This document shows positions 1,287-18,835 of a DNA stretch of 20,000 nucleotides, in pieces (position 1 is the stretch's first letter; each line of letters opens with the position of its first letter). Source of the DNA: an uncultured virus (IMG/VR IMGVR_UViG_3300032220_001209) (taxonomy: Duplodnaviria > Heunggongvirae > Uroviricota > Caudoviricetes); the IMG/VR virus record IMGVR_UViG_3300032220_001209; one strand, written 5' to 3'. The notes beneath the pieces were generated by a model. That model did not search any database, was not told where the DNA came from, and saw only the letters and a list, made by a program, of their open reading frames with translations. The translations under genes and the position numbers were made by a program.

Positions 1287-2735
1287 ATGCCTGACGATAT
1301 TAAACAAAACACAGACTATGGATATGATATACAGAAAGTATATCTAGAAATGATGCTGAGTGATGCACAAACATTTGTGCGTTGTCAAAACATATTTGAT
1401 CACACTCTGTTTGATCGCAGACTTCAAACAGCAGCAGAATTCATTTACAATTATGTGAGCAAGTATAATGCATTGCCCACAGAAGAAATGGTAAATTCCA
1501 GTTGCAAAACTGAATTAAAAGTTCCCAGCAATCTTAATGAACAACACTTTGATTGGTTGTTGGATGATTTTGAAACATTTATTAGACACAAAGGATTAGA
1601 ACGTGCTATATTAAAATCAGCAGACATGTTGGAAAAAGGTGAATATGGTCCTGTGGAGGATTTGGTTAAGAAAGCAGTGCAAGTAGGATTGAACAAAGAC
1701 TTAGGAATCAACTATTGGGAAGATCCCAAAGGTAGATTAAAATCACTCAAAGATAACAATGGTCAGGTCAGCACTGGTTGGAAAACATTGGATAAGAAAT
1801 TGTTTGGTGGATTCAACAGAGGTGAGTTGAATATATTTGCTGGAGGATCAGGAGCAGGTAAATCTTTATTCTTAGCCAACCTAGGTTGTAACTGGGCATT
1901 GTCTGGATTGAATGTGCTGTATTTAACTTTTGAATTGGGAGAAGGATTGGTAGCAATGAGATTGGACAGTATGATGACCAATATACCTTCTAGAGAAATT
2001 TTTAAAGATTTGGATGGTGTGGAAATGAAAGTTAAATTGTTAGGTAAAAAGTCTGGCAGTTTTCAAATCAAATACATGTCTAGTGGTAAGAATGCCAACG
2101 ATATTAGAAGTTATATCAAAGAATTTGAAATTAAAAACAATAAAAAATTTGATGTGATATTGGTGGATTATTTGGATCTTATGATGCCAATCAGTAGAAA
2201 AGTTAGCCCCAGTGATTTGTTTGTTAAAGATAAATTTGTATCGGAAGAATTGAGAAATTTGTCCATGGACTTACAAACTATATTTGTAACAGCTTCTCAA
2301 TTGAACAGAGGTGCTGTGGAAGAGATTGAATTTGATCATTCACACATAGCTGGTGGATTATCCAAAATACAAACAGCAGACAATGTGTTTGGTATATTCA
2401 CATCCAGAGCAATGAGAGAACGTGGTAGATATCAAATACAATTGATGAAAACTAGATCATCCAGCGGTGTAGGTCAAAAGATTGATTTAGAATTTGATCT
2501 TGATTCTTTAAGAATTAGAGACTTGCCAGAAGACGAAGAATATAAAGAATTTGACAATAGAAAATCCAAAATATTTGACACATTAAAAAAGACCAGCACA
2601 GTGACAGATGAAATTCAATCTGAATCAATGCCTGTAGATCCCACACAAGGAGTTAATATCACTAAAACCAAAGTGGAAGCAGACTCTACCAAACTGAGAC
2701 AATTTCTAAATAATTTAGGACAAGACAAAGAATAA
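1287..2735 (+). CDS. Replicative DNA helicase, DnaB/T4 gp41-like (SF4)
   Basis: Walker A GGSGAGKS, Walker B VILVDYLD, ASQLNR and MKTRSS motifs. ATG 1287 is preferred over the TTG at 1272. Confidence 0.93.
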   Translation: MPDDIKQNTDYGYDIQKVYLEMMLSDAQTFVRCQNIFDHTLFDRRLQTAAEFIYNYVSKYNALPTEEMVNSSCKTELKVPSNLNEQHFDWLLDDFETFIRHKGLERAILKSADMLEKGEYGPVEDLVKKAVQVGLNKDLGINYWEDPKGRLKSLKDNNGQVSTGWKTLDKKLFGGFNRGELNIFAGGSGAGKSLFLANLGCNWALSGLNVLYLTFELGEGLVAMRLDSMMTNIPSREIFKDLDGVEMKVKLLGKKSGSFQIKYMSSGKNANDIRSYIKEFEIKNNKKFDVILVDYLDLMMPISRKVSPSDLFVKDKFVSEELRNLSMDLQTIFVTASQLNRGAVEEIEFDHSHIAGGLSKIQTADNVFGIFTSRAMRERGRYQIQLMKTRSSSGVGQKIDLEFDLDSLRIRDLPEDEEYKEFDNRKSKIFDTLKKTSTVTDEIQSESMPVDPTQGVNITKTKVEADSTKLRQFLNNLGQDKE

Positions 2736-2817: not shown

Positions 2818-2931
2818 TTATTTGTTGATTACAACTTTTTTTACAATCACCTTAACACTTACTACCTTGCTGGAAATAAATTGTTTGATTGTGTCAATCA
2901 CCCCTGTGATTGTATTGATGATAGCCTTCAT
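2818..2931 (-). CDS. Small amphipathic/basic peptide (37 aa)
   Basis: MKAIINTITGVIDTIKQFISSKVVSVKVIVKKVVINK, preceded by the SD-like AAGGGAGA and a TATAAATA box at 2985-2992 on the minus strand. Confidence 0.6.
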   Translation of the reverse strand: MKAIINTITGVIDTIKQFISSKVVSVKVIVKKVVINK

Positions 2932-2984
2932 AGCCTATTCTCCCTTGTTTGAGTTAAGACATCATTCTGTGAATGATGACTAGA

Positions 2985-2992
2985 TATTTATA
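2985..2992 (-). promoter_or_regulatory. T4-type late promoter TATAAATA
   Basis: Exact TATAAATA on the minus strand, ~55 nt upstream of the 37-aa ORF. Confidence 0.55.
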
Positions 2993-3108
2993 AATCAGAA
3001 TGTAAATGTAAAACGCTCTTAGATTAAATTGCACGCAGTGCCAGCGCAGAAAAAACTGCAGTTAATTTACTTGCCGCTCGACGGCATGCAGCACGATTTT
3101 TTTTTGAT

Positions 3109-3752: not shown

Positions 3753-4688
3753 TTACTGGGTGTTTTTTGGGGGGTTTTGGGTGGTGTGTGCCCACAGTTT
3801 TTGCACCACTTGATTCACACATGTTTTCCAATCTTTCACTGCGGATTCTGCATCTGCCTGCCACCAAATATCTTGATCCCACCAGCCTGCTTGTATTCTC
3901 ACTGTGTGATTGTTCACCTGAGCCACCACTCCTGCTGCTGTGTCACAATCGCCATTGATGCCAGCCAACACTGCTCGCTCACACCACAACTCCACTGTCT
4001 CTTTGGGCAGCAGCAGTGGTTGCCATAAATCCCAACTTCTTTGATCTCGCTCTCTGATTTGAACCACCACACAACCAGCACCTGCTGCTGGCAGCATCAG
4101 TTGAGGATCCAAACACCAGTGTTGACCACTCCAAGTGGGATGATTCCAATTGTTCACAGTGTCCAACAGATGCAATCTCTGCACAGCACACTCCGCCATG
4201 ATGATGGCAGAATATTCGCCATTGATTAATTTTTTTAATCGTGTGCCAATGTTGCCTCTCAATGTGACCACATCCACGTCTGGTCGCAACAATTTGAATT
4301 GTGCAGCACGACGAGCACTGCTGGTACCCACTCTGCTGTAACTGGGAATTTGTGAGATGTGACCGTATGCACTCAACACACAATCTCTGCGATCACCTCT
4401 CTGCCACACACAGCCCAACAGTGTGGTGCCTGGTTCAATTTGCGTGGGCACATCTTTGGCACTGTGAACCACACAGTCCACTTCACCTGCCAACAGTGCT
4501 TGTTCTAACTCTCTGCAGAATGCACCTTTGCCTCCCACTTCACTCAAGGGTCGATCCAGCACACGATCTCCGGTGCTGATAATCTGACGAATTGATGTGG
4601 GAATTTGTAAACCTTGCAAGGCCCACTGTGTTTGCACCATGGCCAGGTCTGACTGACGACTGCCCACAGTGTACACAGAATTTTTCAT
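3753..4688 (-). CDS. hemC: Porphobilinogen deaminase (hydroxymethylbilane synthase)
   Basis: GSRQSDLAMVQT, TGDRVLDRPL, GGKGAFCRELEQALL, VHSAKDVP, GTSSARR, LRGNIGTRLKKL, and the cofactor Cys in ERAVLAGINGDCDT. Confidence 0.92.
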   Translation of the reverse strand: MKNSVYTVGSRQSDLAMVQTQWALQGLQIPTSIRQIISTGDRVLDRPLSEVGGKGAFCRELEQALLAGEVDCVVHSAKDVPTQIEPGTTLLGCVWQRGDRRDCVLSAYGHISQIPSYSRVGTSSARRAAQFKLLRPDVDVVTLRGNIGTRLKKLINGEYSAIIMAECAVQRLHLLDTVNNWNHPTWSGQHWCLDPQLMLPAAGAGCVVVQIRERDQRSWDLWQPLLLPKETVELWCERAVLAGINGDCDTAAGVVAQVNNHTVRIQAGWWDQDIWWQADAESAVKDWKTCVNQVVQKLWAHTTQNPPKNTQ

Positions 4689-8843: not shown

Positions 8844-9314
8844 ATGACAATATCAAACATACTTAAACCTATCAGTGTGGCTCTAGCTATATTCTTAGCT
8901 GCAGACTACTCCCTTGCTGGACCATTGCCTGACTACTCGTTCAAAAGCCCTGCTTTTAATGGCAATGGTTACAGCACTCACGAGTTGACCAAGTATAACC
9001 TGGAACAAACTCGTGCCAAGGAGATTCAACAGGCCTTGGAATCCAAAGCTGCGGCTGCCAAAGCAGAGGCCAAGAACACTCCAATCAATCAGTTCATGGT
9101 CAATTTGGAATCAAGAATTTATGCACAGATCAGTCAAAATCTAGCCACTGCCATGTTTGCGGATGGGGCAGCCACCACTGGCAGCATGACCTTCCAGGGC
9201 AACACCATATACTGGAACAAGAACGGCACCACGAGCATCACGTTGATGGTGACAGATACTCTGGGCAACAACACAACCATAGAAGTGCCATTGGGACAAT
9301 TTACATTTAATTAA
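8844..9314 (+). CDS. csgF: Curli assembly component CsgF-like
   Basis: Signal peptide, N-terminal YSFKSPAFNGNG and F..NLESRIYAQISQNL, immediately upstream of csgG. Confidence 0.8.
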   Translation: MTISNILKPISVALAIFLAADYSLAGPLPDYSFKSPAFNGNGYSTHELTKYNLEQTRAKEIQQALESKAAAAKAEAKNTPINQFMVNLESRIYAQISQNLATAMFADGAATTGSMTFQGNTIYWNKNGTTSITLMVTDTLGNNTTIEVPLGQFTFN

Positions 9315-9315
9315 T

Positions 9316-10173
9316 ATGATAAAAATTGCTTTGACATTGGGATTATTATTGCTGAGTAATTGTGCAGTGATGCAGAAGGCCGGCATGGAAAGCAAACCTG
9401 AAATCACTGAGATGAAAATGCAAAAAGAATTTGACACAGTACCTACACCAGCACAGAAGAAGATCACTGTGGCAGTGTACAGTTTTCAAGACAAGACAGG
9501 ACAGCGCAGGAACACTCCCAACGTGGCCAGTTTCTCCACAGCGGTCACCCAGGGTGCGGAACCATTCCTGATCAAGGCCCTGCAGGACGTGGGCAAGGGT
9601 CAATGGTTTGATGTGGTGGAGCGAGTGAACGTGGACAACCTGATCAAGGAGAGAACCATCATCAAACAGATGAGAGACATGTATGAGGGCGGCAATGCCA
9701 AGAGTGTGCCACCATTGCAATTTGCAGGCATCATTGTGGAAGGTGGCATCATAGGCTACGACAGCGGTATGGAGTCAGGTGGAGCTGCTTACAAATGGTT
9801 GGGCATAGGACCACAATCACAATATTCCAAAGACGTAGTGACCATCAGTTTAAGAGCAGTATCAGTGAGCAGCGGCAAGGTGTTGGCTACTATCACAGTG
9901 AGCAAGACAATTTACAGCACAGCAGACAGCATTGCCATATTGAAAGCATTCAGAGGCGGCACTGCATTTTTTGAAGCTGAGACAGGACTTACTATCAACG
10001 AACCCACCACTCTGGCAGTAAAGGCCACAGTCGAGGCAGCAGTGGTGGAATTAATAAATGAAGGCGAGCGCAAAGGTATTTGGAGTTTTAAAGATCCTAA
10101 ACCTGAGAACCTAGACGAGTGGTATGAAAATAATAACCAACAATTAAACAAAAAACAAGAGGAACAAAAATGA
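9316..10173 (+). CDS. csgG: Curli secretion channel CsgG/HfaB family lipoprotein
   Basis: Lipobox LLLSNC, AVYSFQDKTGQRR, FSTAVTQGA, WFDVVER...NLIKERTII, EGGIIGYD and DVVTISLRAVSV. Confidence 0.92.
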   Translation: MIKIALTLGLLLLSNCAVMQKAGMESKPEITEMKMQKEFDTVPTPAQKKITVAVYSFQDKTGQRRNTPNVASFSTAVTQGAEPFLIKALQDVGKGQWFDVVERVNVDNLIKERTIIKQMRDMYEGGNAKSVPPLQFAGIIVEGGIIGYDSGMESGGAAYKWLGIGPQSQYSKDVVTISLRAVSVSSGKVLATITVSKTIYSTADSIAILKAFRGGTAFFEAETGLTINEPTTLAVKATVEAAVVELINEGERKGIWSFKDPKPENLDEWYENNNQQLNKKQEEQK

Positions 10174-11117
10174 AAAATATGAAAATAATAATTCCTTGCT
10201 TGGTTACCATACTATATTCAACATCAGCTTTGTCTGATGATAATTTGATTTATATTGACCAAGTGGGTTCGTCATCTGACGTCACAGTGACACAGACAGG
10301 CAGTGGCAACACAGTGGGTGGTACCAGTGGTGCGGCTGCAACAGGTAATAGAGCGTCTTTGTCAGGATCAGATCAAACCATCAGTGTGACACAAACTGGC
10401 GATGGCAACACATTAAAATTAAAAACACAAGATGGATCCACAGGAACCAGCACAACGAACTATTCAGCGACCGGTGACAACAACACGTCTATCGTGGACA
10501 CTGTGAGCTCGGGTGCAGGTAACACCATCAATCAAACCATATATGGTAACACCAACACTACCAATGTCAATGTTAGAGGCAACAGTGGTGCCAACTCTGT
10601 GACCACAAATATTGGAACATCGGGTGCCAACAGCAACAGCAACACTGTGAATCAAAGTACCAGCGGTACTCTGAACAGTCAAACTGTGAGCATCACAGGT
10701 GGCAACAGCAACACCGTAACTGTGCTGCAAGGCAAAGGATCTTCTCTGACCAATGATATCACAGTGCCCACCACTTCAGGCACGTTGTTGGGATTAGATT
10801 CCGCCACATTTGGATCTGGCTCAACCAGTGACAAGGCCACTGCTTCAGTAACCATACAGGGTGGCAGCAACAATGTGAGAATTGGACAGGTGGGTGGAGA
10901 TGCCACAGGCAACTCGGCCACTGTGGACATCTTAGGATCTTCCAACGGCATCAGCATTGCACAACAGGGACTGGGACACAGCTCATCTAGTTTGACTGTG
11001 ACTGGTGGCAGCAACACTTTGAACGTGGGACAGAATGCCACGTCAGGCAACACCAATACTACCACTATGAGTGTGACTGGCAGCAACAACTTGGTCAACA
11101 TACAACAAAATCACTAG
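10170..11117 (+). CDS. Curlin-repeat (CsgA/CsgB-like) secreted protein 1
   Basis: Signal peptide and S/T/G/N-rich repeats of the hxQxGxxNxh type (IYIDQVG, VTQTGSGN, VTQTGDGN, IQGGSNN, VTGSNN), directly after csgG. Confidence 0.8.
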   Translation: MKNMKIIIPCLVTILYSTSALSDDNLIYIDQVGSSSDVTVTQTGSGNTVGGTSGAAATGNRASLSGSDQTISVTQTGDGNTLKLKTQDGSTGTSTTNYSATGDNNTSIVDTVSSGAGNTINQTIYGNTNTTNVNVRGNSGANSVTTNIGTSGANSNSNTVNQSTSGTLNSQTVSITGGNSNTVTVLQGKGSSLTNDITVPTTSGTLLGLDSATFGSGSTSDKATASVTIQGGSNNVRIGQVGGDATGNSATVDILGSSNGISIAQQGLGHSSSSLTVTGGSNTLNVGQNATSGNTNTTTMSVTGSNNLVNIQQNH

Positions 11118-11126
11118 GAATGTCCA

Positions 11127-11948
11127 ATGAGACTTCTAAATTGGCTCACAGCAGGATTGATACTTTCCTCAACAGCCTGCTGGGCAGCTGATAACGAAGC
11201 CTACATTGATCAACTGGGAGAATATGCCACCATCTATGTGGAACAGGATGGTTCAGCCAACAGCCTGGGTGGAGTGGACGGACCCATATGGTACAGCAAT
11301 CCTGCCATGATGTATGGTGATGGTCAAAACGTGGACATCAGACAGGTAGGGTCTGGCAACTATTTAAAATTTTCCATCTTCACCAAATTGGAAGACTACG
11401 AATATACCAGAACCGGAGTCACATGCACAGGAGTGTGCGGTGAAGCGGATGCCAACGAGTTCGTGGTGTACACCACTGGCTACGGCAATCTAGGCACAGT
11501 GAACGTCAATGCCGATGGAGAAGTGGAAACATCTGGCATAGCACTGTACCTTTCGGAGACTGGAGATTTCAATGAGAGCAACATATCCATCACTGGGTTG
11601 AAGCACACAGTGGTGCTGCTGACCATGGGAGATGTGAACACATTCAACAGTGTGACCACAGGCGAAGAGAACTTCTCCTATGCCAGTGTGACCGGATATC
11701 TCAATAATATTTCTATCACTCAGAGTGGCACTAAAGGTTTGGTCATATTGGACATAGCAGGCAATCAGAACACTGCCACTGTCACTCAATCAGGTGGCGG
11801 GGCATTGGGTCATTGGACCAATCTTTCTGTCAGTGGCAATCTCAACACTCACACCATAGCACAGTCGGGCACAGCCGCAGACAGTGTGGTGGATATCAAG
11901 ACCACGGGCGGCAGCAACAACTTTAACATCAACGTGAATTCAAGATAA
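11127..11948 (+). CDS. Curlin-repeat secreted protein 2
   Basis: Signal peptide, AYIDQLG, VEQDGSAN, IRQVGSGN, IAGNQNTATVTQSG and VSGNLNTHTIAQSG. Confidence 0.75.
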   Translation: MRLLNWLTAGLILSSTACWAADNEAYIDQLGEYATIYVEQDGSANSLGGVDGPIWYSNPAMMYGDGQNVDIRQVGSGNYLKFSIFTKLEDYEYTRTGVTCTGVCGEADANEFVVYTTGYGNLGTVNVNADGEVETSGIALYLSETGDFNESNISITGLKHTVVLLTMGDVNTFNSVTTGEENFSYASVTGYLNNISITQSGTKGLVILDIAGNQNTATVTQSGGGALGHWTNLSVSGNLNTHTIAQSGTAADSVVDIKTTGGSNNFNINVNSR

Positions 11949-13069
11949 TGAAAAAGATCCTATTATTGATGCTGTTATACACCACTGCTGTGTATCCAGC
12001 AGCCATAGGAACCATCACAGAACAAACAGCAGCACCAGGTTCTATTGTGAGAAATAAGAATACCATCACAGGCACCAAAGGCACAGGCATAGAGATGCAG
12101 GATGCTGTGAACACTGCCAAGGGCAAAGTGGGCATAACATTTGAAGATGCCACTCGAGTGGAAGTGAATGAAAATTCCAAACTCGTGATAGATGATTTCG
12201 TTTATGACGCTAAAAAAGGTTCAGGCAAATTGGCCATGAAGTTTGCCGAAGGCACAGTGAGATATGCCTCGGGTGCTATTGCCAGCAAGAATCCCAACTC
12301 AGTCAACATCAACACACCATCTGCCACCATCGCAGTGCGAGGCACGGACTTCACTGCCACTGTGGATGAAGTGGGTGCTAGCACCATTATTCTATTGCCC
12401 AGTTGTCCCAAAGGTTGGGCAGACATAGACAGAGATTGCAAGACAGGGGTCATTGATGTGATGAACAATGCAGGCACAGTCACTTTAAACAAACCCTTTC
12501 AAGGTACCAGAGTGGAAAATAGAAACACCATGCCATTAAAACCTACCATACTGAGTTTGAATTTAGATACCATCAATAACCTGTTGATTGTGAGTCCTCC
12601 CAAAGAGATCAAACAAGCACAGGAACAATATGACAACGAAGCAAAAAACACAGCCAGCATGCTGAATGAAAATCTATTGGACAGCAAGGATTTTTTAAAA
12701 GATGAATTGAAAAGCAGGAACGAGTTTGGAGATAATCCCCTGTTGGAAGATCTACTGGGACAAAATTTCTTGGCCAACATCTTTGATATATTGGAACAAC
12801 AAATAAAAAATGAAAGAAAAGCGGTGTTAAAAAGTGCATTGGTCCCAGAAGGTGACAGCCTGCTGCCGGACTACAATCCTGACACAGGAGTAAAGGCCAC
12901 AGTGGGTGCATCGGAAGTGACGCTGTGCCGCAATGATGGCAGCAACAATCAGTGCATCACCACACCGCGCGGCCAGAGCAGCACAATCATACAAGGTCAA
13001 GGACCAGTCAGCATTCAGAATAGAGTTAACTCAGGTGGCAGCACAACCATAACAGTGATACAAAAATGA
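11948..13069 (+). CDS. Exported FecR-domain protein
   Basis: Signal peptide and FecR beta-domain motifs MQDAVNT, ITFEDATRVEVNENSKLVID and INTPSATIAVRGTDF. Confidence 0.82.
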   Translation: MKKILLLMLLYTTAVYPAAIGTITEQTAAPGSIVRNKNTITGTKGTGIEMQDAVNTAKGKVGITFEDATRVEVNENSKLVIDDFVYDAKKGSGKLAMKFAEGTVRYASGAIASKNPNSVNINTPSATIAVRGTDFTATVDEVGASTIILLPSCPKGWADIDRDCKTGVIDVMNNAGTVTLNKPFQGTRVENRNTMPLKPTILSLNLDTINNLLIVSPPKEIKQAQEQYDNEAKNTASMLNENLLDSKDFLKDELKSRNEFGDNPLLEDLLGQNFLANIFDILEQQIKNERKAVLKSALVPEGDSLLPDYNPDTGVKATVGASEVTLCRNDGSNNQCITTPRGQSSTIIQGQGPVSIQNRVNSGGSTTITVIQK

Positions 13070-14448
13070 GAAATATATTAATAAGTTTAATGTTGATGTT
13101 GTTTTTTGCCAATTCAAAAGCACAAGCAATTGCTTACTCTCCCAATGGCACCACAGGATTGAATCTTGTTTACAATGGTGATGTTGATGATACATTTTTT
13201 ACTGTTAATCTACCTTGGACTGTAAATTTTTTAGGAAGTAATTATGGTACTATCTATGTAGGTTCTAATGGTTATATTACATTTTCATCAGGTAATAATA
13301 CATATAGTGGATTTTCTCCTTCTAATCCTGGAGGCCCACATTTAAGTATAATTCCAGGTGACCGTAGATTACGTAAATTATATTCTGCTGAACTTAATGC
13401 TGGAACTTCTAATGCTAAATTTGTTATTAGAGTGGAAGGAGTTGATTATTCTAATGCAGGCATTACTCACATATACGAAGTTCATTTTTATTCTGGTCAA
13501 TCTTATTATGATGTTTACTTTGTTGATTCTCCATCATCAGGAAATCAAAACGGTGGGACCACAGCCATCAGTAATGGATCTGCATATGTATTAAATTTCA
13601 GCTCAACAGAATCAACTGGCATAAGAATTAATTCCAACGGAACTCTGTATGTTGAGTCTTCACCTGTGGGCGGTGGAGGCAGTTACACCAGCAACATCAC
13701 AAACACACAACAAACCAACATCACTGCCAATAGAAACAGAACCACAGCCCTGAACAACGGCAATGAGATCTACATAGATCAAGTGGGAAACAATAACACA
13801 ACAACAATCACTCAAAAAGGTAATAATAATAAAATCACAGGTACCACACAGCAAACTGCCACCATATCAGGCAACAGCAACTCTACCACTATCAGACAGA
13901 ACAGTGGCACCGGTAAAAATTTAATAGATTTAAATGTGACCGGCACGGGCAGCAACACTCTCAATCTCAACCAGGGCTATCTGTCAGATGGCACACTGAG
14001 TGGCAATCAATTGGGCAACAACTATCAGAAAGTGGATGTGCAGGGCAACAACAACTCACTGACCACTCAGCAGAATAGAGATGTGGGCACTGCGGGCAAT
14101 TACATGGAACACACTGTGATCGGCAACTATAATTCTATCACCAGCACACAGTCTGGAGACAACAAACTGTTATTCAATTCTATCACGGGCAACAACAACA
14201 CCGTTAGCACCACACAGTCAGGCACAGGTGCTCAACACTACATTGACTTGACACTGAATGGTGCAGGCAACACTGCCACTGTGAATCAGAGTGGCAACAC
14301 ACAGAACAAGGCCACCATAGTGATCAACAATTTGGGTGGATCAGCGGGTGTGAATCTCACACAGACCGGCGGGCAAACCTACAACATCACTACCAACTGC
14401 GTGACACTGGGCGGTTGCGGCACTACCACGGTGAACCAAGCACAATAA
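13066..14448 (+). CDS. Curlin-repeat secreted protein 3 with extra N-terminal (NIDO-like) domain
   Basis: Signal peptide, N-domain DDTFFTVNLPWTVNFLG..YVGSNGYITF, and C-terminal curlin repeats (EIYIDQVGNNN, ITQKGNNN, VQGNNN, ITGNNN, VNQSGN). Confidence 0.75.
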   Translation: MRNILISLMLMLFFANSKAQAIAYSPNGTTGLNLVYNGDVDDTFFTVNLPWTVNFLGSNYGTIYVGSNGYITFSSGNNTYSGFSPSNPGGPHLSIIPGDRRLRKLYSAELNAGTSNAKFVIRVEGVDYSNAGITHIYEVHFYSGQSYYDVYFVDSPSSGNQNGGTTAISNGSAYVLNFSSTESTGIRINSNGTLYVESSPVGGGGSYTSNITNTQQTNITANRNRTTALNNGNEIYIDQVGNNNTTTITQKGNNNKITGTTQQTATISGNSNSTTIRQNSGTGKNLIDLNVTGTGSNTLNLNQGYLSDGTLSGNQLGNNYQKVDVQGNNNSLTTQQNRDVGTAGNYMEHTVIGNYNSITSTQSGDNKLLFNSITGNNNTVSTTQSGTGAQHYIDLTLNGAGNTATVNQSGNTQNKATIVINNLGGSAGVNLTQTGGQTYNITTNCVTLGGCGTTTVNQAQ

Positions 14449-14459
14449 ATACTCATATT

Positions 14460-16496
14460 ATGAAATGGGTCAGTCCTTGGACAGCAATCATCACTTTGAT
14501 ATTAATCCTCACTGTTAGGATGGCAGACCCCGCATTTGTGGAGAGTGTGCGACTGAGATACTTTGACACTCTGATCACTGGCAAAACTGCCACACAAAAC
14601 AACATATACACTGTTAACATTGACGAGAAGAGTTTGGAGCAGTATGGGCAATGGCCATTCCCCCGAGATGTGTATGGCCGGATTATCCAAGATTTGTATG
14701 ACAGAGGAGCAGGACTGGTGGTGTTCAACGTGCTGATGCCAGAACCAGATCGCAGTGGCAAAGATGCGACATTGGCAGAAACCATGAAAAAACATCCTGT
14801 GGTGTTGAGCAATGTGCCAGCACAACAGACCAAGAATGAACCCCGAGTGCCAGGCTCAGCAGTGCTGGGACCAGAACATCTTAACACCATTGTGAAATAT
14901 TCAGGCATGATTGCCAATATACCGTCATTGGAAAATGCTGCTGTGGGAGTGGGAACCACCAACACACTGCCAGAGATAGATGGCGTGAACCGACGACTGC
15001 CTCTGATAGTCACTGTGGATGGAAAATTATATCCCAACCTTGCAGTGGAAACTCTGAGAGTGGCCACAAACAATTCTACATTTCAAGTCAAGTTAAATGT
15101 GAATGGTGTGGAGAAGATGAGACTGCCTGGAGACATAGGCATCATTGACACAGACTCCTTAGGCAGAGTATGGATAGATTGGAGTCAACGGAATCACTCA
15201 GTGTCTTTAAATGATCTACCCGCAGACTTCAAAGGATCCATAGTGATAGTGGGCACATCAGCAGCAGGCATAGCCAATCCAGTGGCCACAGCCATAGGAC
15301 CAGTTTGGCCTCAGGATCTACAAGCAGCCGTGATAGGCACCATGATCAACAAAGTGAATATCAAGAGACCTGATTGGGCAGAGGGTGCAGAAGCAATCAG
15401 TTTAATACTATTGTCCTTGACTTTATTATTTTTAAGCAGATGGGTTTATGTGGGCATGGCAATGGGAGTCATTATGATTGTTGCCGTGGTTCCTTTGAGC
15501 AATCTTTTTTACACACACAATCTTTGGCTGTTGGATGGCACTCTACTGGTGGCAGGATTGACATTGGTGATGCTGCATGCCTATGGTATCAAATTTGTCA
15601 GTGAGTATCTACAGAAACAGAGAATCAAGAAACAATTTGGTGGATATGCATCTCCCATGGTGGTTGAAATGTTGCAGAAGAATCCAGACATAATCAAACA
15701 AGGTATTAAGAAAGAAGTCAGCATTTGTTTTTCAGATCTGCGTGGATTCACTCCACTGGGAGAATCATTTGGCGATGATGTGAAAGGATTGACTGAAGTG
15801 ATGAATGGTTATATGGATGCCATCACACAACCTGTGTTGGATGCCAACGGCATGATCATCAAGTACATTGGTGATGCCAGCATGCACATTCACAATGCAC
15901 CCATGGATGATCCAGAACATCCTAAAACAGCAGTGCAGACTGCTCTCCGCATGTTGAAGGCAGTGGAACGTTTCAATGAGACATTAACAGCCAAAGGTAG
16001 ACCCATTGTGGGCATGGGTGCTGGTATCAACACTGGTCTGGGTTATATCGGTGAAATGGGCAGCACACAGCGACATTCATATGATGTGTTGGGTGATGCT
16101 GTGAGCACCACAGCAAGATTGGAAAGTCAATGCAAGAACTATGGAGTGCTATTGATAGTGGGTCCTGAAACCCATCGCAGAACTGAAAATGATTTCTTCT
16201 ATCTCAAACTGGATGATTTGGCAGTGAAAGGCAAAACTGTGGGGCTGGACATCTACACAGTGCTGGATTTAAATTCCTTAGAACATGCTCAAGACAAAGA
16301 ATTGCACAATGCCATGCATGCGGATTATCGCAATCAAAAATTTGATGCAGCCATTGCAAAATGTAAAAAATTAAAAGGCAGTTTCAATGGTCTGATGGAC
16401 AAATATTATAAGATGTGGCAGGAACGTTGTGAATACATGCAAACACAAACACTGCCCACAGACTGGAATGGTGTGTTTATTGCCACCACCAAATAG
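14460..16496 (+). CDS. CHASE2-domain class III adenylate/guanylate cyclase
   Basis: N-terminal TM, CHASE2 motifs (IDEKSL..YGQWPFPR, EPDR..D, DGVNRRLPL), three TM helices, and cyclase motifs FSDLRGFT, IKYIGDA, GINTG, YDVLGDAVSTTARLES and VKGK. Start placed at ATG 14460. Confidence 0.9.
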   Translation: MKWVSPWTAIITLILILTVRMADPAFVESVRLRYFDTLITGKTATQNNIYTVNIDEKSLEQYGQWPFPRDVYGRIIQDLYDRGAGLVVFNVLMPEPDRSGKDATLAETMKKHPVVLSNVPAQQTKNEPRVPGSAVLGPEHLNTIVKYSGMIANIPSLENAAVGVGTTNTLPEIDGVNRRLPLIVTVDGKLYPNLAVETLRVATNNSTFQVKLNVNGVEKMRLPGDIGIIDTDSLGRVWIDWSQRNHSVSLNDLPADFKGSIVIVGTSAAGIANPVATAIGPVWPQDLQAAVIGTMINKVNIKRPDWAEGAEAISLILLSLTLLFLSRWVYVGMAMGVIMIVAVVPLSNLFYTHNLWLLDGTLLVAGLTLVMLHAYGIKFVSEYLQKQRIKKQFGGYASPMVVEMLQKNPDIIKQGIKKEVSICFSDLRGFTPLGESFGDDVKGLTEVMNGYMDAITQPVLDANGMIIKYIGDASMHIHNAPMDDPEHPKTAVQTALRMLKAVERFNETLTAKGRPIVGMGAGINTGLGYIGEMGSTQRHSYDVLGDAVSTTARLESQCKNYGVLLIVGPETHRRTENDFFYLKLDDLAVKGKTVGLDIYTVLDLNSLEHAQDKELHNAMHADYRNQKFDAAIAKCKKLKGSFNGLMDKYYKMWQERCEYMQTQTLPTDWNGVFIATTK

Positions 16497-18039: not shown

Positions 18040-18152
18040 CCCCTTTGCACTGATAATACAAAGGGGCGAGTTATCAGCTCTTTATGGTATCCGAGCCTGG
18101 ATTAGATACCAGGAAAACACCCAGAGGGCCGGTCTGATTCCCGCACTCGGAT
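18040..18152 (-). ncRNA. Putative structured ncRNA: tRNA-like domain (18152-18085, ends ACCA) plus two hairpins with complementary loops
   Basis: AUCCGAG/CUCGGAU-ACCA acceptor-like stem, CCUGG/CCAGG T-like arm, downstream loops CUGAUAA and UUAUCAG, and a consensus promoter immediately upstream. Confidence 0.65.
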
Positions 18153-18158
18153 ACCCAT

Positions 18159-18187
18159 ATTGTATGCGATTTTTGGTGAATTGTCAA
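18159..18187 (-). promoter_or_regulatory. Sigma70-type promoter
   Basis: TTGACA (18187-18182), 17 nt spacer, TACAAT (18164-18159). Confidence 0.75.
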
Positions 18188-18190
18188 GAG

Positions 18191-18388
18191 TTAGATCACT
18201 GCAGGCTTGCGTTGAATATGACCCAACACAGTGCCCTGATGTTCACCCTGTTTGATCACATAGCCTGAAGTGCCATGGCCATTGATCTCCACTTCTCGGC
18301 GAGCTCGCACCAATGCTGCGTCCTGTGCTTTTTGACGCTGTTGTGCTGAGTGCTGCTGCAACAGATGAGTGTGTGTTTGTTTGTCCAT
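18191..18388 (-). CDS. 65-aa protein downstream of the glutamine riboswitch, possible GS inactivating factor (IF7-like)
   Basis: AAGGAGA SD before ATG 18388. Sequence MDKQTHTHLLQQHSAQQRQKAQDAALVRARREVEING... The function is inference. Confidence 0.65.
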   Translation of the reverse strand: MDKQTHTHLLQQHSAQQRQKAQDAALVRARREVEINGHGTSGYVIKQGEHQGTVLGHIQRKPAVI

Positions 18389-18415
18389 ACATTCTCCTTG
18401 GTTAAGGTTATGCAT

Positions 18416-18463
18416 GCGTTCCTTCGAATTGCTTCTACTTCCAAGCCACTGTGCTCGAACGAT
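18416..18463 (-). promoter_or_regulatory. Glutamine-I riboswitch (glnA RNA motif)
   Basis: AUCGUUC-GAGC acagug GCUU-GGAAGUA-GAA gcaa UUC-GAAG-GAACGC gives P1 CGUUC/GAACG, P2, the GGAAGUA junction, P3 with a GNRA loop and the GAAG E-loop strand. Confidence 0.85.
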
Positions 18464-18506: not shown

Positions 18507-18653
18507 TTATCTTGTCAAGTACAACAGCACAGGTATCATCACCATCAGTGCAGTGATGCACCAAATGAGAGCCACTTGCAGCAGAGCAATCCAAGTGTTG
18601 GAGTGCAGTGCCACATGTAAAAAATAGGGTCTAGCGGTGTGTTTCTTTTTCAT
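18507..18653 (-). CDS. Small membrane protein (48 aa)
   Basis: MKKKHTARPYFLHVALHSNTWIALLQVALIWCITALMVMIPVLLYLTR, starting 2 nt after the upstream stop. Confidence 0.5.
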   Translation of the reverse strand: MKKKHTARPYFLHVALHSNTWIALLQVALIWCITALMVMIPVLLYLTR

Positions 18654-18655
18654 GA

Positions 18656-18796
18656 TCACTTTCGACCCTGACCACGATACTGCTTGAACTGACGCTTTTT
18701 GTGCTTGTTCATGCTGCTGCGTTTCACATTGCGATGATCACTCTGTGAAGTCTTCTTGGGTCGGGGTGTGCTGTGCATGGTTGCTGTGTAAGCCAT
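18656..18796 (-). CDS. Small basic phage protein (46 aa)
   Basis: MAYTATMHSTPRPKKTSQSDHRNVKRSSMNKHKKRQFKQYRGQGRK. The KKTSQ...SSMNK...YRGQG pattern is familiar from T4-like phage hypotheticals, and a promoter lies directly upstream. Confidence 0.7.
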   Translation of the reverse strand: MAYTATMHSTPRPKKTSQSDHRNVKRSSMNKHKKRQFKQYRGQGRK

Positions 18797-18806
18797 AATA
18801 CAGTGT

Positions 18807-18835
18807 AATATACTGTGTTTTGAGCAGATTGTCAA
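18807..18835 (-). promoter_or_regulatory. Sigma70-type promoter
   Basis: TTGACA (18835-18830), 17 nt spacer, TATATT (18812-18807), 10 nt before ATG 18796. Confidence 0.7.

Follow-up and report, generated by a model that had tools for sequence, protein, structure and literature searches.

A glutamine-I aptamer of variant subtype ahead of a 65-residue SAR11-type micro-protein gene in an uncultured caudovirus

The stretch of DNA considered here, hereafter the window, comprises 20,000 nucleotides (nt) of the uncultured virus IMGVR_UViG_3300032220_001209 (Duplodnaviria; Heunggongvirae; Uroviricota; Caudoviricetes) from IMG/VR, and on its minus strand it carries what is, judged by sequence, a genuine glutamine-I aptamer of a variant subtype, placed ahead of an open reading frame (ORF) of 65 amino acids (aa). 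We consider it likely that the two form a working glutamine-I riboswitch in the 5' leader of a phage gene, one that would serve as a glutamine-ON switch for a small regulator derived from the host. In the mechanism that we propose, the sequence 3' of the P1 helix would mask the ribosome-binding site and the start codon, by analogy with the leader of Synechocystis gifB, glutamine binding would lift this masking, and the protein, a phage copy of a SAR11 micro-protein of 60-70 aa with a basic N-terminal helix and a beta meander, would be made in the glutamine-rich infected cell. The phage would in this way borrow a nitrogen-status effector from its host; the targets considered are glutamine synthetase (GS), which is a candidate, the ammonium transporter, or something else. 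The features at the center of this proposal are the following.

Positions 18413-18463, minus strand: glutamine-I (glnA-motif) aptamer, from the Rfam model RF01739 (42.3 bits), the covariance model R1 (40.4 bits), and covariation.
Positions 18394-18399, minus strand: Shine-Dalgarno (SD) sequence AAGGAG, 5 nt before the ATG, from reading of the sequence.
Positions 18386-18416, minus strand: putative expression platform, from the minimum-energy fold.
Positions 18191-18388, minus strand: 65-aa ORF of a SAR11-type micro-protein family (phrog_32989), with its ATG at 18388 and its stop codon at 18193-18191, from PHROG and profile searches.

The first-pass annotation, made from the letters alone, had seen a compact canonical glutamine-I aptamer at this place, and a search with the Rfam glnA model and an independent covariance model both bear it out. 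In the Rfam scan, RF01739 aligned over its full length (model positions 1-53) to window 18463-18413, with a score above the gathering threshold of 35 bits and an E-value of 2.3e-6, and this was the sole Rfam match at or above the gathering score within the 20-kb window. The model R1, which was built from 20 other aptamers of viral, SAR11, SAR86, and cyanobacterial loci with the window excluded, returned positions 18464-18415 at an E-value of ~5e-7. When 33 aptamers, 21 of them distinct and the window included, were aligned to R1, 90.1% of the cells paired (slid controls, 30-48%) and changes on both sides were seen in 8 of the 13 pairs, with P1 invariant among the 21 distinct aptamers. The three-helix architecture of the glutamine-I class, backed by this covariation, is present in the window, where the aptamer reads from 5' to 3' as P1 (CGUUC/GAACG), a variable hairpin, the GGAAGUAG core, a 3-bp hairpin with a GCAA loop, and GAAGGAACG. 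The conserved core nucleotides (CGUUC, GGAAGUA, and GAAGGAACG) are all there, and every column that is invariant in the 20 other aptamers is retained.

The window departs from the class at two near-invariant positions, with A replaced by G just after the 5' strand of P1 and C replaced by U just before GGAAGUA, and it is because of these two substitutions that its aptamer scores 42 bits against the 57-67 bits of the marine phage copies, a shortfall of 15-25 bits. Together with an SD-masking hairpin that is weak and poorly conserved, this could be taken to mean that the aptamer is a decayed copy which has lost glutamine sensing, the ORF being expressed constitutively from an upstream promoter. 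We hold this to be very unlikely, in that the score is still above the Rfam gathering cut-off, the other invariant nucleotides are all kept, and the two substitutions co-occur in 8 of the 9 aligned leaders, which come from two protein subclades, namely the clade of the window protein (L158, L159, L162, L163, and L165) and a second clade (L219 and L220). Such sharing of the paired substitutions argues for selection and not decay, and so for a variant aptamer; if the two bases face each other, as we suppose they do, the A.C to G.U exchange would be isosteric. Each of the 14 metagenome loci detected with R1 lies directly upstream of a member of the 65-aa family, and 13 of them score 36.8-43.9 bits and are window-like, the remaining locus (L213) having the canonical form at 60.3 bits.

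The ORF behind the aptamer matches phrog_32989 (E 3.9e-6), with no Pfam or NCBIfam family assigned to it, and its relatives make up 37 clusters at 90% identity (E <= 0.01) and 142 clusters at 50% identity (E <= 1e-3), nearly all of 40-110 aa, from which we conclude that it is a real gene. Relatives are also found at 30 loci in IMG/VR, in at least 515 of at least 595 pattern-matched metagenome stretches, and, among cultured phages, as gp38 of HTVC106P (54 aa) and an unannotated frame of HTVC008M. This last homologue (L002, KC465899, 1415-1587) lies between the genes for a DNA end protector and a baseplate tail-tube initiator, and the shift of its N-terminal part into a different reading frame at a run of A points to either a frameshift or an error in sequencing. 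The family has a size of 60-70 aa and the core motif ARKEVEINGxGTSGYxIKxG; in the alignment, the N-terminal half is variable and basic, and the invariant core consists of A29, R30, E32, V33, E34, I35, N36, G39, T40, G42, Y43, K46, and G48. Both the profile match and the motif EVEINGxGTSGYxIKxG are found in the window ORF. AlphaFold2, run on a 46-row alignment, placed a helix at residues 3-32 and strands at 33-35, 42-45, and 54-57 (mean pLDDT 78.1, pTM 0.43), and the protein is predicted to be an N-terminal helix followed by a three-stranded beta meander that bears the invariant core. The ESM Atlas returned viral hypothetical clusters only, with scores <= 0.83, and the family profile searched against PDB sequences gave chance rows only, the best being a designer propeller at E 0.087. 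The metagenomic proteins P0040, P0067, P0133, and P0055 carry the micro-protein as a C-terminal fusion to a domain that we take, from its ETSH motif, to be S-adenosylmethionine (AdoMet) decarboxylase-like; a link to polyamine metabolism or read-through in gene calling are possible explanations of this fusion.

Between the aptamer and the gene, the ATG at 18388 stands 24 nt past the end of the Rfam match; the 27 nt given by the first-pass annotation hold if the count starts from the C after P1 (18416), and the short ORF with a strong SD that it had described behind the aptamer is present. The minimum-energy fold brings CAUGCAU (18416-18410) into a helix with AUGUAUG (18392-18386), a segment that takes in the start codon, and base-pairs AAGG (18399-18396) of the SD with CCUU (18407-18404). 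Each of seven marine viral leaders can likewise be read as having an anti-SD immediately past P1 (CACCU...GGGUG), and so can cyanobacterial leaders (CGCCUC...GAGGCG). The type-1 leader of gifB (IF17) in Synechocystis sp. PCC 6803 belongs to the same RF01739 class and likewise has, in the relevant passages of Klahn 2018 (PMC6212724), a single aptamer in the 5' untranslated region of a small-protein gene and an anti-SD segment directly after P1. In Synechocystis, translation from this anti-SD type of leader is switched on by glutamine (Klahn 2018, PMC6212724; Bolay 2018, PMC6316151), as we presume for the window. Unlike gifB, the window belongs to a phage of a heterotroph and not to a cyanobacterium, its protein has no detectable DUF4278/IF7 similarity, and its aptamer has the G/U variant at two near-invariant positions.

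Upstream of the aptamer, three features bear on how the leader may be transcribed.

Positions 18807-18835, minus strand: sigma-70-like promoter TTGACA-17-TATATT, from a consensus scan with 11 of 12 matches.
Positions 18656-18796, minus strand: small basic ORF, phrog_17967, from the ORF list and a PHROG match.
Positions 18507-18659, minus strand: 50-aa ORF, hydrophobic in its C-terminal half, with its end 44 nt upstream of the aptamer, from the ORF list.

The sigma-70-like site (18835-18807), which precedes the riboswitch and the two small ORFs of the same orientation, is a candidate for the start of the riboswitch-carrying transcript; sites of this type are not enriched in the region (6 against 4.2 +/- 1.7 in shuffles). 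The phrog_17967 ORF probably starts at an internal ATG (18796), given that the promoter-like site overlaps with the TTG start listed at 18835, and the 50-aa ORF, for which no Pfam or PHROG match was found, is probably on the same transcript as the riboswitch. The co-transcript, like the function of the 65-aa protein, is something that we infer. In the marine viral relatives, an exact TATAAATA, which we take to be the T4 late-promoter consensus, is found within ~15 nt of the aptamer start in six of these seven leaders, and none stands at the corresponding place in the window.

Across the family, the gene appears to sit almost always behind a dedicated structured leader, be it the glutamine riboswitch, a double-pseudoknot RNA, or a third leader, and for this reason we read the micro-protein as a tightly dosed small regulator. 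The glutamine aptamer was found in 11 of the 30 IMG/VR viral loci (in three of the 30 the upstream DNA is too short for a verdict), in 14 of the 80 metagenome loci, and in 2 of the 30 best SAR11 loci. All 28 riboswitch-less SAR11 loci (L239-L266) carry between a promoter-like site and the SD a strongly conserved double-pseudoknot leader of ~65 nt, made up of two hairpins whose 4-nt loops pair with sequence beyond an A-rich linker, so that the two kinds of leader are mutually exclusive in the 30 SAR11 loci (2 against 28). The same leader is present in phages.

L242, positions 1687-1777, minus strand: double-pseudoknot leader, SAR11 example, from covariation.
L015 and L018, positions 2913-3003, and L235, positions 388-478: the same leader before the micro-protein gene in phage loci.

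In this leader, 93.1% of the cells pair, against 22-32% in slid controls, and compensatory changes on both sides are seen in 10 of the 17 pairs, 7 of the 8 pseudoknot pairs among them; as few independent lineages carry these changes, the covariation is suggestive and not proof. No Rfam family matched this leader at E <= 1, no glutamine-II (RF01704) or other riboswitch was found at that threshold in the leaders of 20 SAR11 loci, and at the same threshold the HTVC106P and HTVC008M loci showed no riboswitch. The leader was also not met in the pertinent passages of Meyer 2009 (PMC2704228). It is a candidate for a new RNA regulator acting in cis, whether as a riboswitch or as the operator of a protein. 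The freshwater clade nearest to the window protein (MTIDINK start; L164-L206 and L003) has a third conserved leader of its own, which lies ~60 nt upstream of the ATG, directly behind TATAAATA, presumably a T4-type late promoter, and which has a UGCA/UGCA hairpin, a variable loop, and alternative flanking pairings, with neither the glutamine aptamer nor the pseudoknot leader. Other family members abut the upstream gene with no gap, or follow or are fused to AdoMet decarboxylase.

The micro-protein is near-universal and single-copy in SAR11 and common in SAR11 phages. The family profile matched in 295 of 401 Pelagibacteraceae genomes, nearly always once per genome (the tally takes in one genome flagged as unpublished, G224, which enters into no other result), and in a class-wide even sample it matched in 2 of 401 genomes, both Pelagibacteraceae; the SAR11 copies carry only "hypothetical protein" as their source name (e.g., the 63-aa MDA9745089.1). 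In one Pelagibacteraceae assembly (L104; genome G002), a 70-aa family member lies behind a single aptamer with a phage-type platform, and its 20-kb surroundings hold ordinary cellular genes, namely those for an aldehyde dehydrogenase, DsbA, MnmA, a DEAD helicase, RpoZ, and a TRAP transporter. The neighbors of the gene in SAR11 include RmuC, a flavodoxin-like protein, RlmN, PNPase, FabI, and others, and in phages they vary among the clamp and clamp loader, a baseplate hub, a primase, ribonucleotide reductase, a radical-SAM protein, and an endolysin. Phages would have taken the gene from their hosts. As a separate observation, in one SAR11 subclade a piece of a two-piece alpha-type transfer-messenger RNA (tmRNA), scoring 35-37 bits and thus under the Rfam cut-off, abuts the 3' end of the micro-protein gene (L248 1658-1733, plus strand; L261 1566-1453, minus strand), an adjacency to tmRNA that recurs in the phage Melnitz, where the glutamine aptamer abuts ssrA.

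A number of results weigh against a working glutamine-ON switch for a nitrogen-related regulator, to be counted along with the two substitutions and the lower score set out above. The aptamer is absent from 19 of the 30 viral, 66 of the 80 metagenome, and 28 of the 30 SAR11 loci, and with most members lacking the riboswitch the role of the protein need not be tied to glutamine. The SD-masking hairpin has a z of -1.37, with 19 of 200 shuffles folding equally well, and it is missing in the nearest relatives (L159, L162, L163, and L165), whose linker is 12 nt shorter; the hairpin being no better than shuffles and absent in the closest relatives, the ON direction is one that we infer by analogy. 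In favor of the switch, contigs from four metatranscriptome runs (three studies) cover the ORF and the aptamer, but contigs from RNA libraries may be DNA carry-over and cannot show the start, the strand, or true transcription. No conserved nitrogen-gene neighbor of the family was found in the SAR11 and phage loci, and glnA is distant or on another contig in all four SAR11 genomes in which it was found, five having been searched. The fold yields no functional lead either: Foldseek against the PDB gave nothing at E <= 0.001 (best E 5.5), and a wide structure alignment with VIA reached at best a Z of 3.5, its rows mostly matching the N-terminal helix.

A more specific account had been put forward in the first-pass annotation, which aligned the N-terminus of the ORF by eye with IF7 and proposed an IF7/GifA-like peptide through which the phage might control the GS of its host. 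That the 65-aa protein is such a factor, whether a homologue or a convergent analogue, and inactivates host GS at high glutamine, seems to us quite improbable. The idea has the attraction that in cyanobacteria IF17, IF7-like, and DUF4278 peptides stand under the same riboswitch class (see also Klahn 2018, PMC6212724), and that SAR11, according to the relevant passages of Smith 2013 (PMC3870248), has no PII system, which makes an unknown GS regulator plausible there. The predicted basic helix of the N-terminal half and the similar length also fit. The comparison set consisted of the riboswitch-linked cyanobacterial peptides from the aptamer scan, and in it the hidden Markov model (HMM) of IF7A (NCBIfam NF052599) matched 6 of 6 such peptides as a positive control (best E 4.4e-10); among the phage and SAR11 family members it matched 0 of 23 at E <= 10, as did DUF4278 (PF14105, the IF17 domain with its YRG repeats) in Pfam. 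When the family was aligned to the IF7-like set with hhalign, the very alignment made by eye was returned, ORF residues 8-36 with 22-50 over 29 columns at 31% identity, but with a probability of only 1.9-2.0% (P 0.025-0.026), and against 15 YRG-repeat peptides, which are termed DUF4278-type from their repeats and from Klahn 2018 (PMC6212724) and not from a Pfam scan, P was 0.97. Of the three arginines that are invariant in the IF7-like set, R22 and R35 fall on H8 and A21 of the ORF and only R42 falls on an arginine (R28), and each of the three is reported to be essential for GS binding by IF7 (Bolay 2018, PMC6316151). Nothing in IF7 corresponds to residues 29-57, where the ORF is most conserved, and a PDB search with an IF7-like peptide matched no chain. 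To these points are to be added the mostly riboswitch-less members and the non-adjacent glnA already described, as well as the reported species specificity of the pairs of GS and inactivating factor (Bolay 2018, PMC6316151). The window family resembles IF7/IF7A (GifA; NF052599), which has riboswitch-linked relatives in cyanobacteria, in its size, its basic helical N-terminal half, and weakly and locally over 29 residues of the window ORF, and it differs in its extra invariant beta-meander core; homology of the 65-aa ORF to IF7/IF17 is not supported.

The main rival to a glutamine-ON switch sees in the micro-protein an RNA-binding or ribosome-associated repressor of its own mRNA with no role in nitrogen metabolism, the leaders being its operators (compare ribosomal S15, S4, and T4 gene 32) and the glutamine aptamer an alternative input gained by some lineages. 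A pseudoknotted leader that reaches the SD is an architecture typical of autogenous operators, and precisely such a conserved leader is found in 28 of 28 riboswitch-less SAR11 loci, ahead of a protein that is small, basic, near-universal, and single-copy. The contacts with tmRNA, by the gene in one SAR11 subclade and by the aptamer in Melnitz, and the position of the gene fused to or directly after AdoMet decarboxylase in some phages, can be read in the same direction. The replacement of the leader by a metabolite riboswitch, however, fits metabolite control better than feedback by the protein, no known RNA-binding fold or family was detected in the Pfam, PDB, Foldseek, and VIA searches, and no ribosomal-gene neighborhood was seen in the SAR11 loci. 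On balance we regard this self-regulating micro-protein as unlikely and retain the glutamine-ON switch as the preferred reading.

The genes found behind the same aptamer class elsewhere bear on what a glutamine-ON switch would govern. An aptamer pattern scan over one genome per species gave at least 122 loci. Among the loci listed, what follows the aptamer in cyanobacteria is YRG-repeat (DUF4278-type) and IF7-like peptides; in SAR11, SAR116, SAR86, and other marine proteobacteria it is ammonium transporters (amt), glnA, gltB/gltD, a porin-like protein, and several small ORFs, with the aptamers often in tandem. Being ON at high glutamine is the opposite of what would be expected for amt, glnA, or gltBD, and on this ground the protein may act as a brake on the assimilation of nitrogen or as an effector of nitrogen status. 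As background, the relevant passages of Smith 2013 (PMC3870248) describe SAR11 as being without GlnB, GlnD, GlnK, and NtrBC. Among phages, glutamine riboswitches have been published for Melnitz, Mosig, and pelagimyophage assemblies (Buchholz 2022, PMC9004378) and for T4-like cyanophages (PMC9964418); the Melnitz riboswitch was read as controlling the neighboring tmRNA, and the passages of Buchholz 2022 (PMC9004378) that deal with it name no downstream ORF. The riboswitches of the Melnitz-like phages and pelagimyophages share with that of the window the phage group, the aptamer class, and the fact of being phage-encoded. In Melnitz, unlike the window, ssrA is immediately followed by the aptamer (L033 3601-3649), behind which stands an unannotated ORF of another family, ~32 aa long, whereas no tmRNA was found in the window, where the riboswitch target is the 65-aa family. 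HTVC106P gp38, which is likewise annotated only as hypothetical, and the chromosomal 63-aa proteins of SAR11 belong to the same family and have the same core motif as the window protein, but they are without the glutamine riboswitch, and the SAR11 copies have the double-pseudoknot leader. In the literature on glutamine riboswitches in phages or SAR11, supplements aside, we found no description of the 65-aa family.

Other micro-proteins were seen under the same switch. The ~32-aa ORF behind the Melnitz aptamer (MZ577097, L033 3601-3770) is basic and contains Cys and Trp, similar ORFs of 36-48 aa lie behind tandem aptamers on two contigs of proteobacterial metagenome-assembled genomes (L074 467-574, minus strand; L155 430-573), and all three have a common CACCUAAC...GGAGGGUG platform, making up a second riboswitch-controlled micro-protein family. 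In SAR86 and other gammaproteobacteria, ORFs of 52-54 aa ending in ...FFPYYL have one or two glutamine aptamers and an anti-SD platform ahead of them (L050 419-580, minus strand; L134 424-579; L135 424-585; and L066 412-570, minus strand, which ends in ...KPYYL plus six residues), and they form a third, unrelated family. Pattern matches in L042, L057, and L112 (Chromobacteriaceae, gammaproteobacterial, and Zoogloea) lie in GC-rich, coding-looking sequence with no ORF start behind them and are probably chance or non-riboswitch matches.

As regards the phage itself, the first-pass annotation had supposed a phage of a probable heterotroph, which agrees with the Melnitz/pelagimyophage type of the window, a group infecting heterotrophs. 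PHROG and Pfam matches include a DnaB-like helicase, endonuclease V, a carbamoyltransferase, a GH19 endolysin, CsgF, CsgG, curlin-repeat proteins, FecR, and a CHASE2-cyclase. The last of these is 49% identical over 99% of its length to the cyclase of the OM43 myophage Melnitz, and 36% identical over 81% of its length to the cyclase of the Pelagibacter phage HTVC008M. The stretch is present in 20 listed public runs (15 studies), labeled mostly as lake, freshwater, or subsurface metagenome, and its GC content is 34-47%. In the nearest record (G001), a fragment of 9.7 kb, no aptamer is present. Two further features of the window stand apart from the riboswitch.

Window 3753-4688: porphobilinogen deaminase (hemC) gene.
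Window 8844-16496: curli-type module.

The curli-type module, which consists of CsgF, CsgG, three curlin-repeat proteins, FecR, and the CHASE2-adenylate/guanylate cyclase, is syntenic with Melnitz and HTVC008M. Downstream of the stop codon of the 65-aa ORF there is a second strong sigma-70-like site, TTGACA-17-TACAAT (window 18187-18159, minus strand), and at window 18083-18187 on the same strand a 10-bp stem, GGUAUCCGAG/CUCGGAUACC, encloses three small hairpins in a cloverleaf-like fold (-35.4 kcal/mol, z -2.25). Neither ARAGORN nor Rfam made a call at this element, which could be a terminator, a small RNA, or a tRNA relic.

Taken together with the family as a whole, the window adds to what has been described for these phages: riboswitches of Melnitz-like phages have a protein target, one not named in the pertinent passages of Buchholz 2022 (PMC9004378), and the freshwater relatives of these phages bear a distinct aptamer variant. 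SAR11 bacteria are among the most abundant of all and are, in the relevant passages of Smith 2013 (PMC3870248), without the usual PII/NtrBC circuitry. The near-universal micro-protein, its gene standing behind a dedicated RNA leader and, in some lineages and many phages, behind a glutamine sensor, is a candidate for the missing post-transcriptional regulator of nitrogen. A bolder proposal, to which we give a small chance, is that the family is the heterotroph counterpart of the cyanobacterial GS-inactivating factors, a glutamine-induced brake on GS or the Amt transporter in PII-less SAR11 that phages have captured repeatedly, and that the pseudoknot leader is a new riboswitch class. If this were true, the double-pseudoknot leader would sense glutamine or another nitrogen-status metabolite, and phages would reset the nitrogen flow of their hosts with a captured micro-protein.

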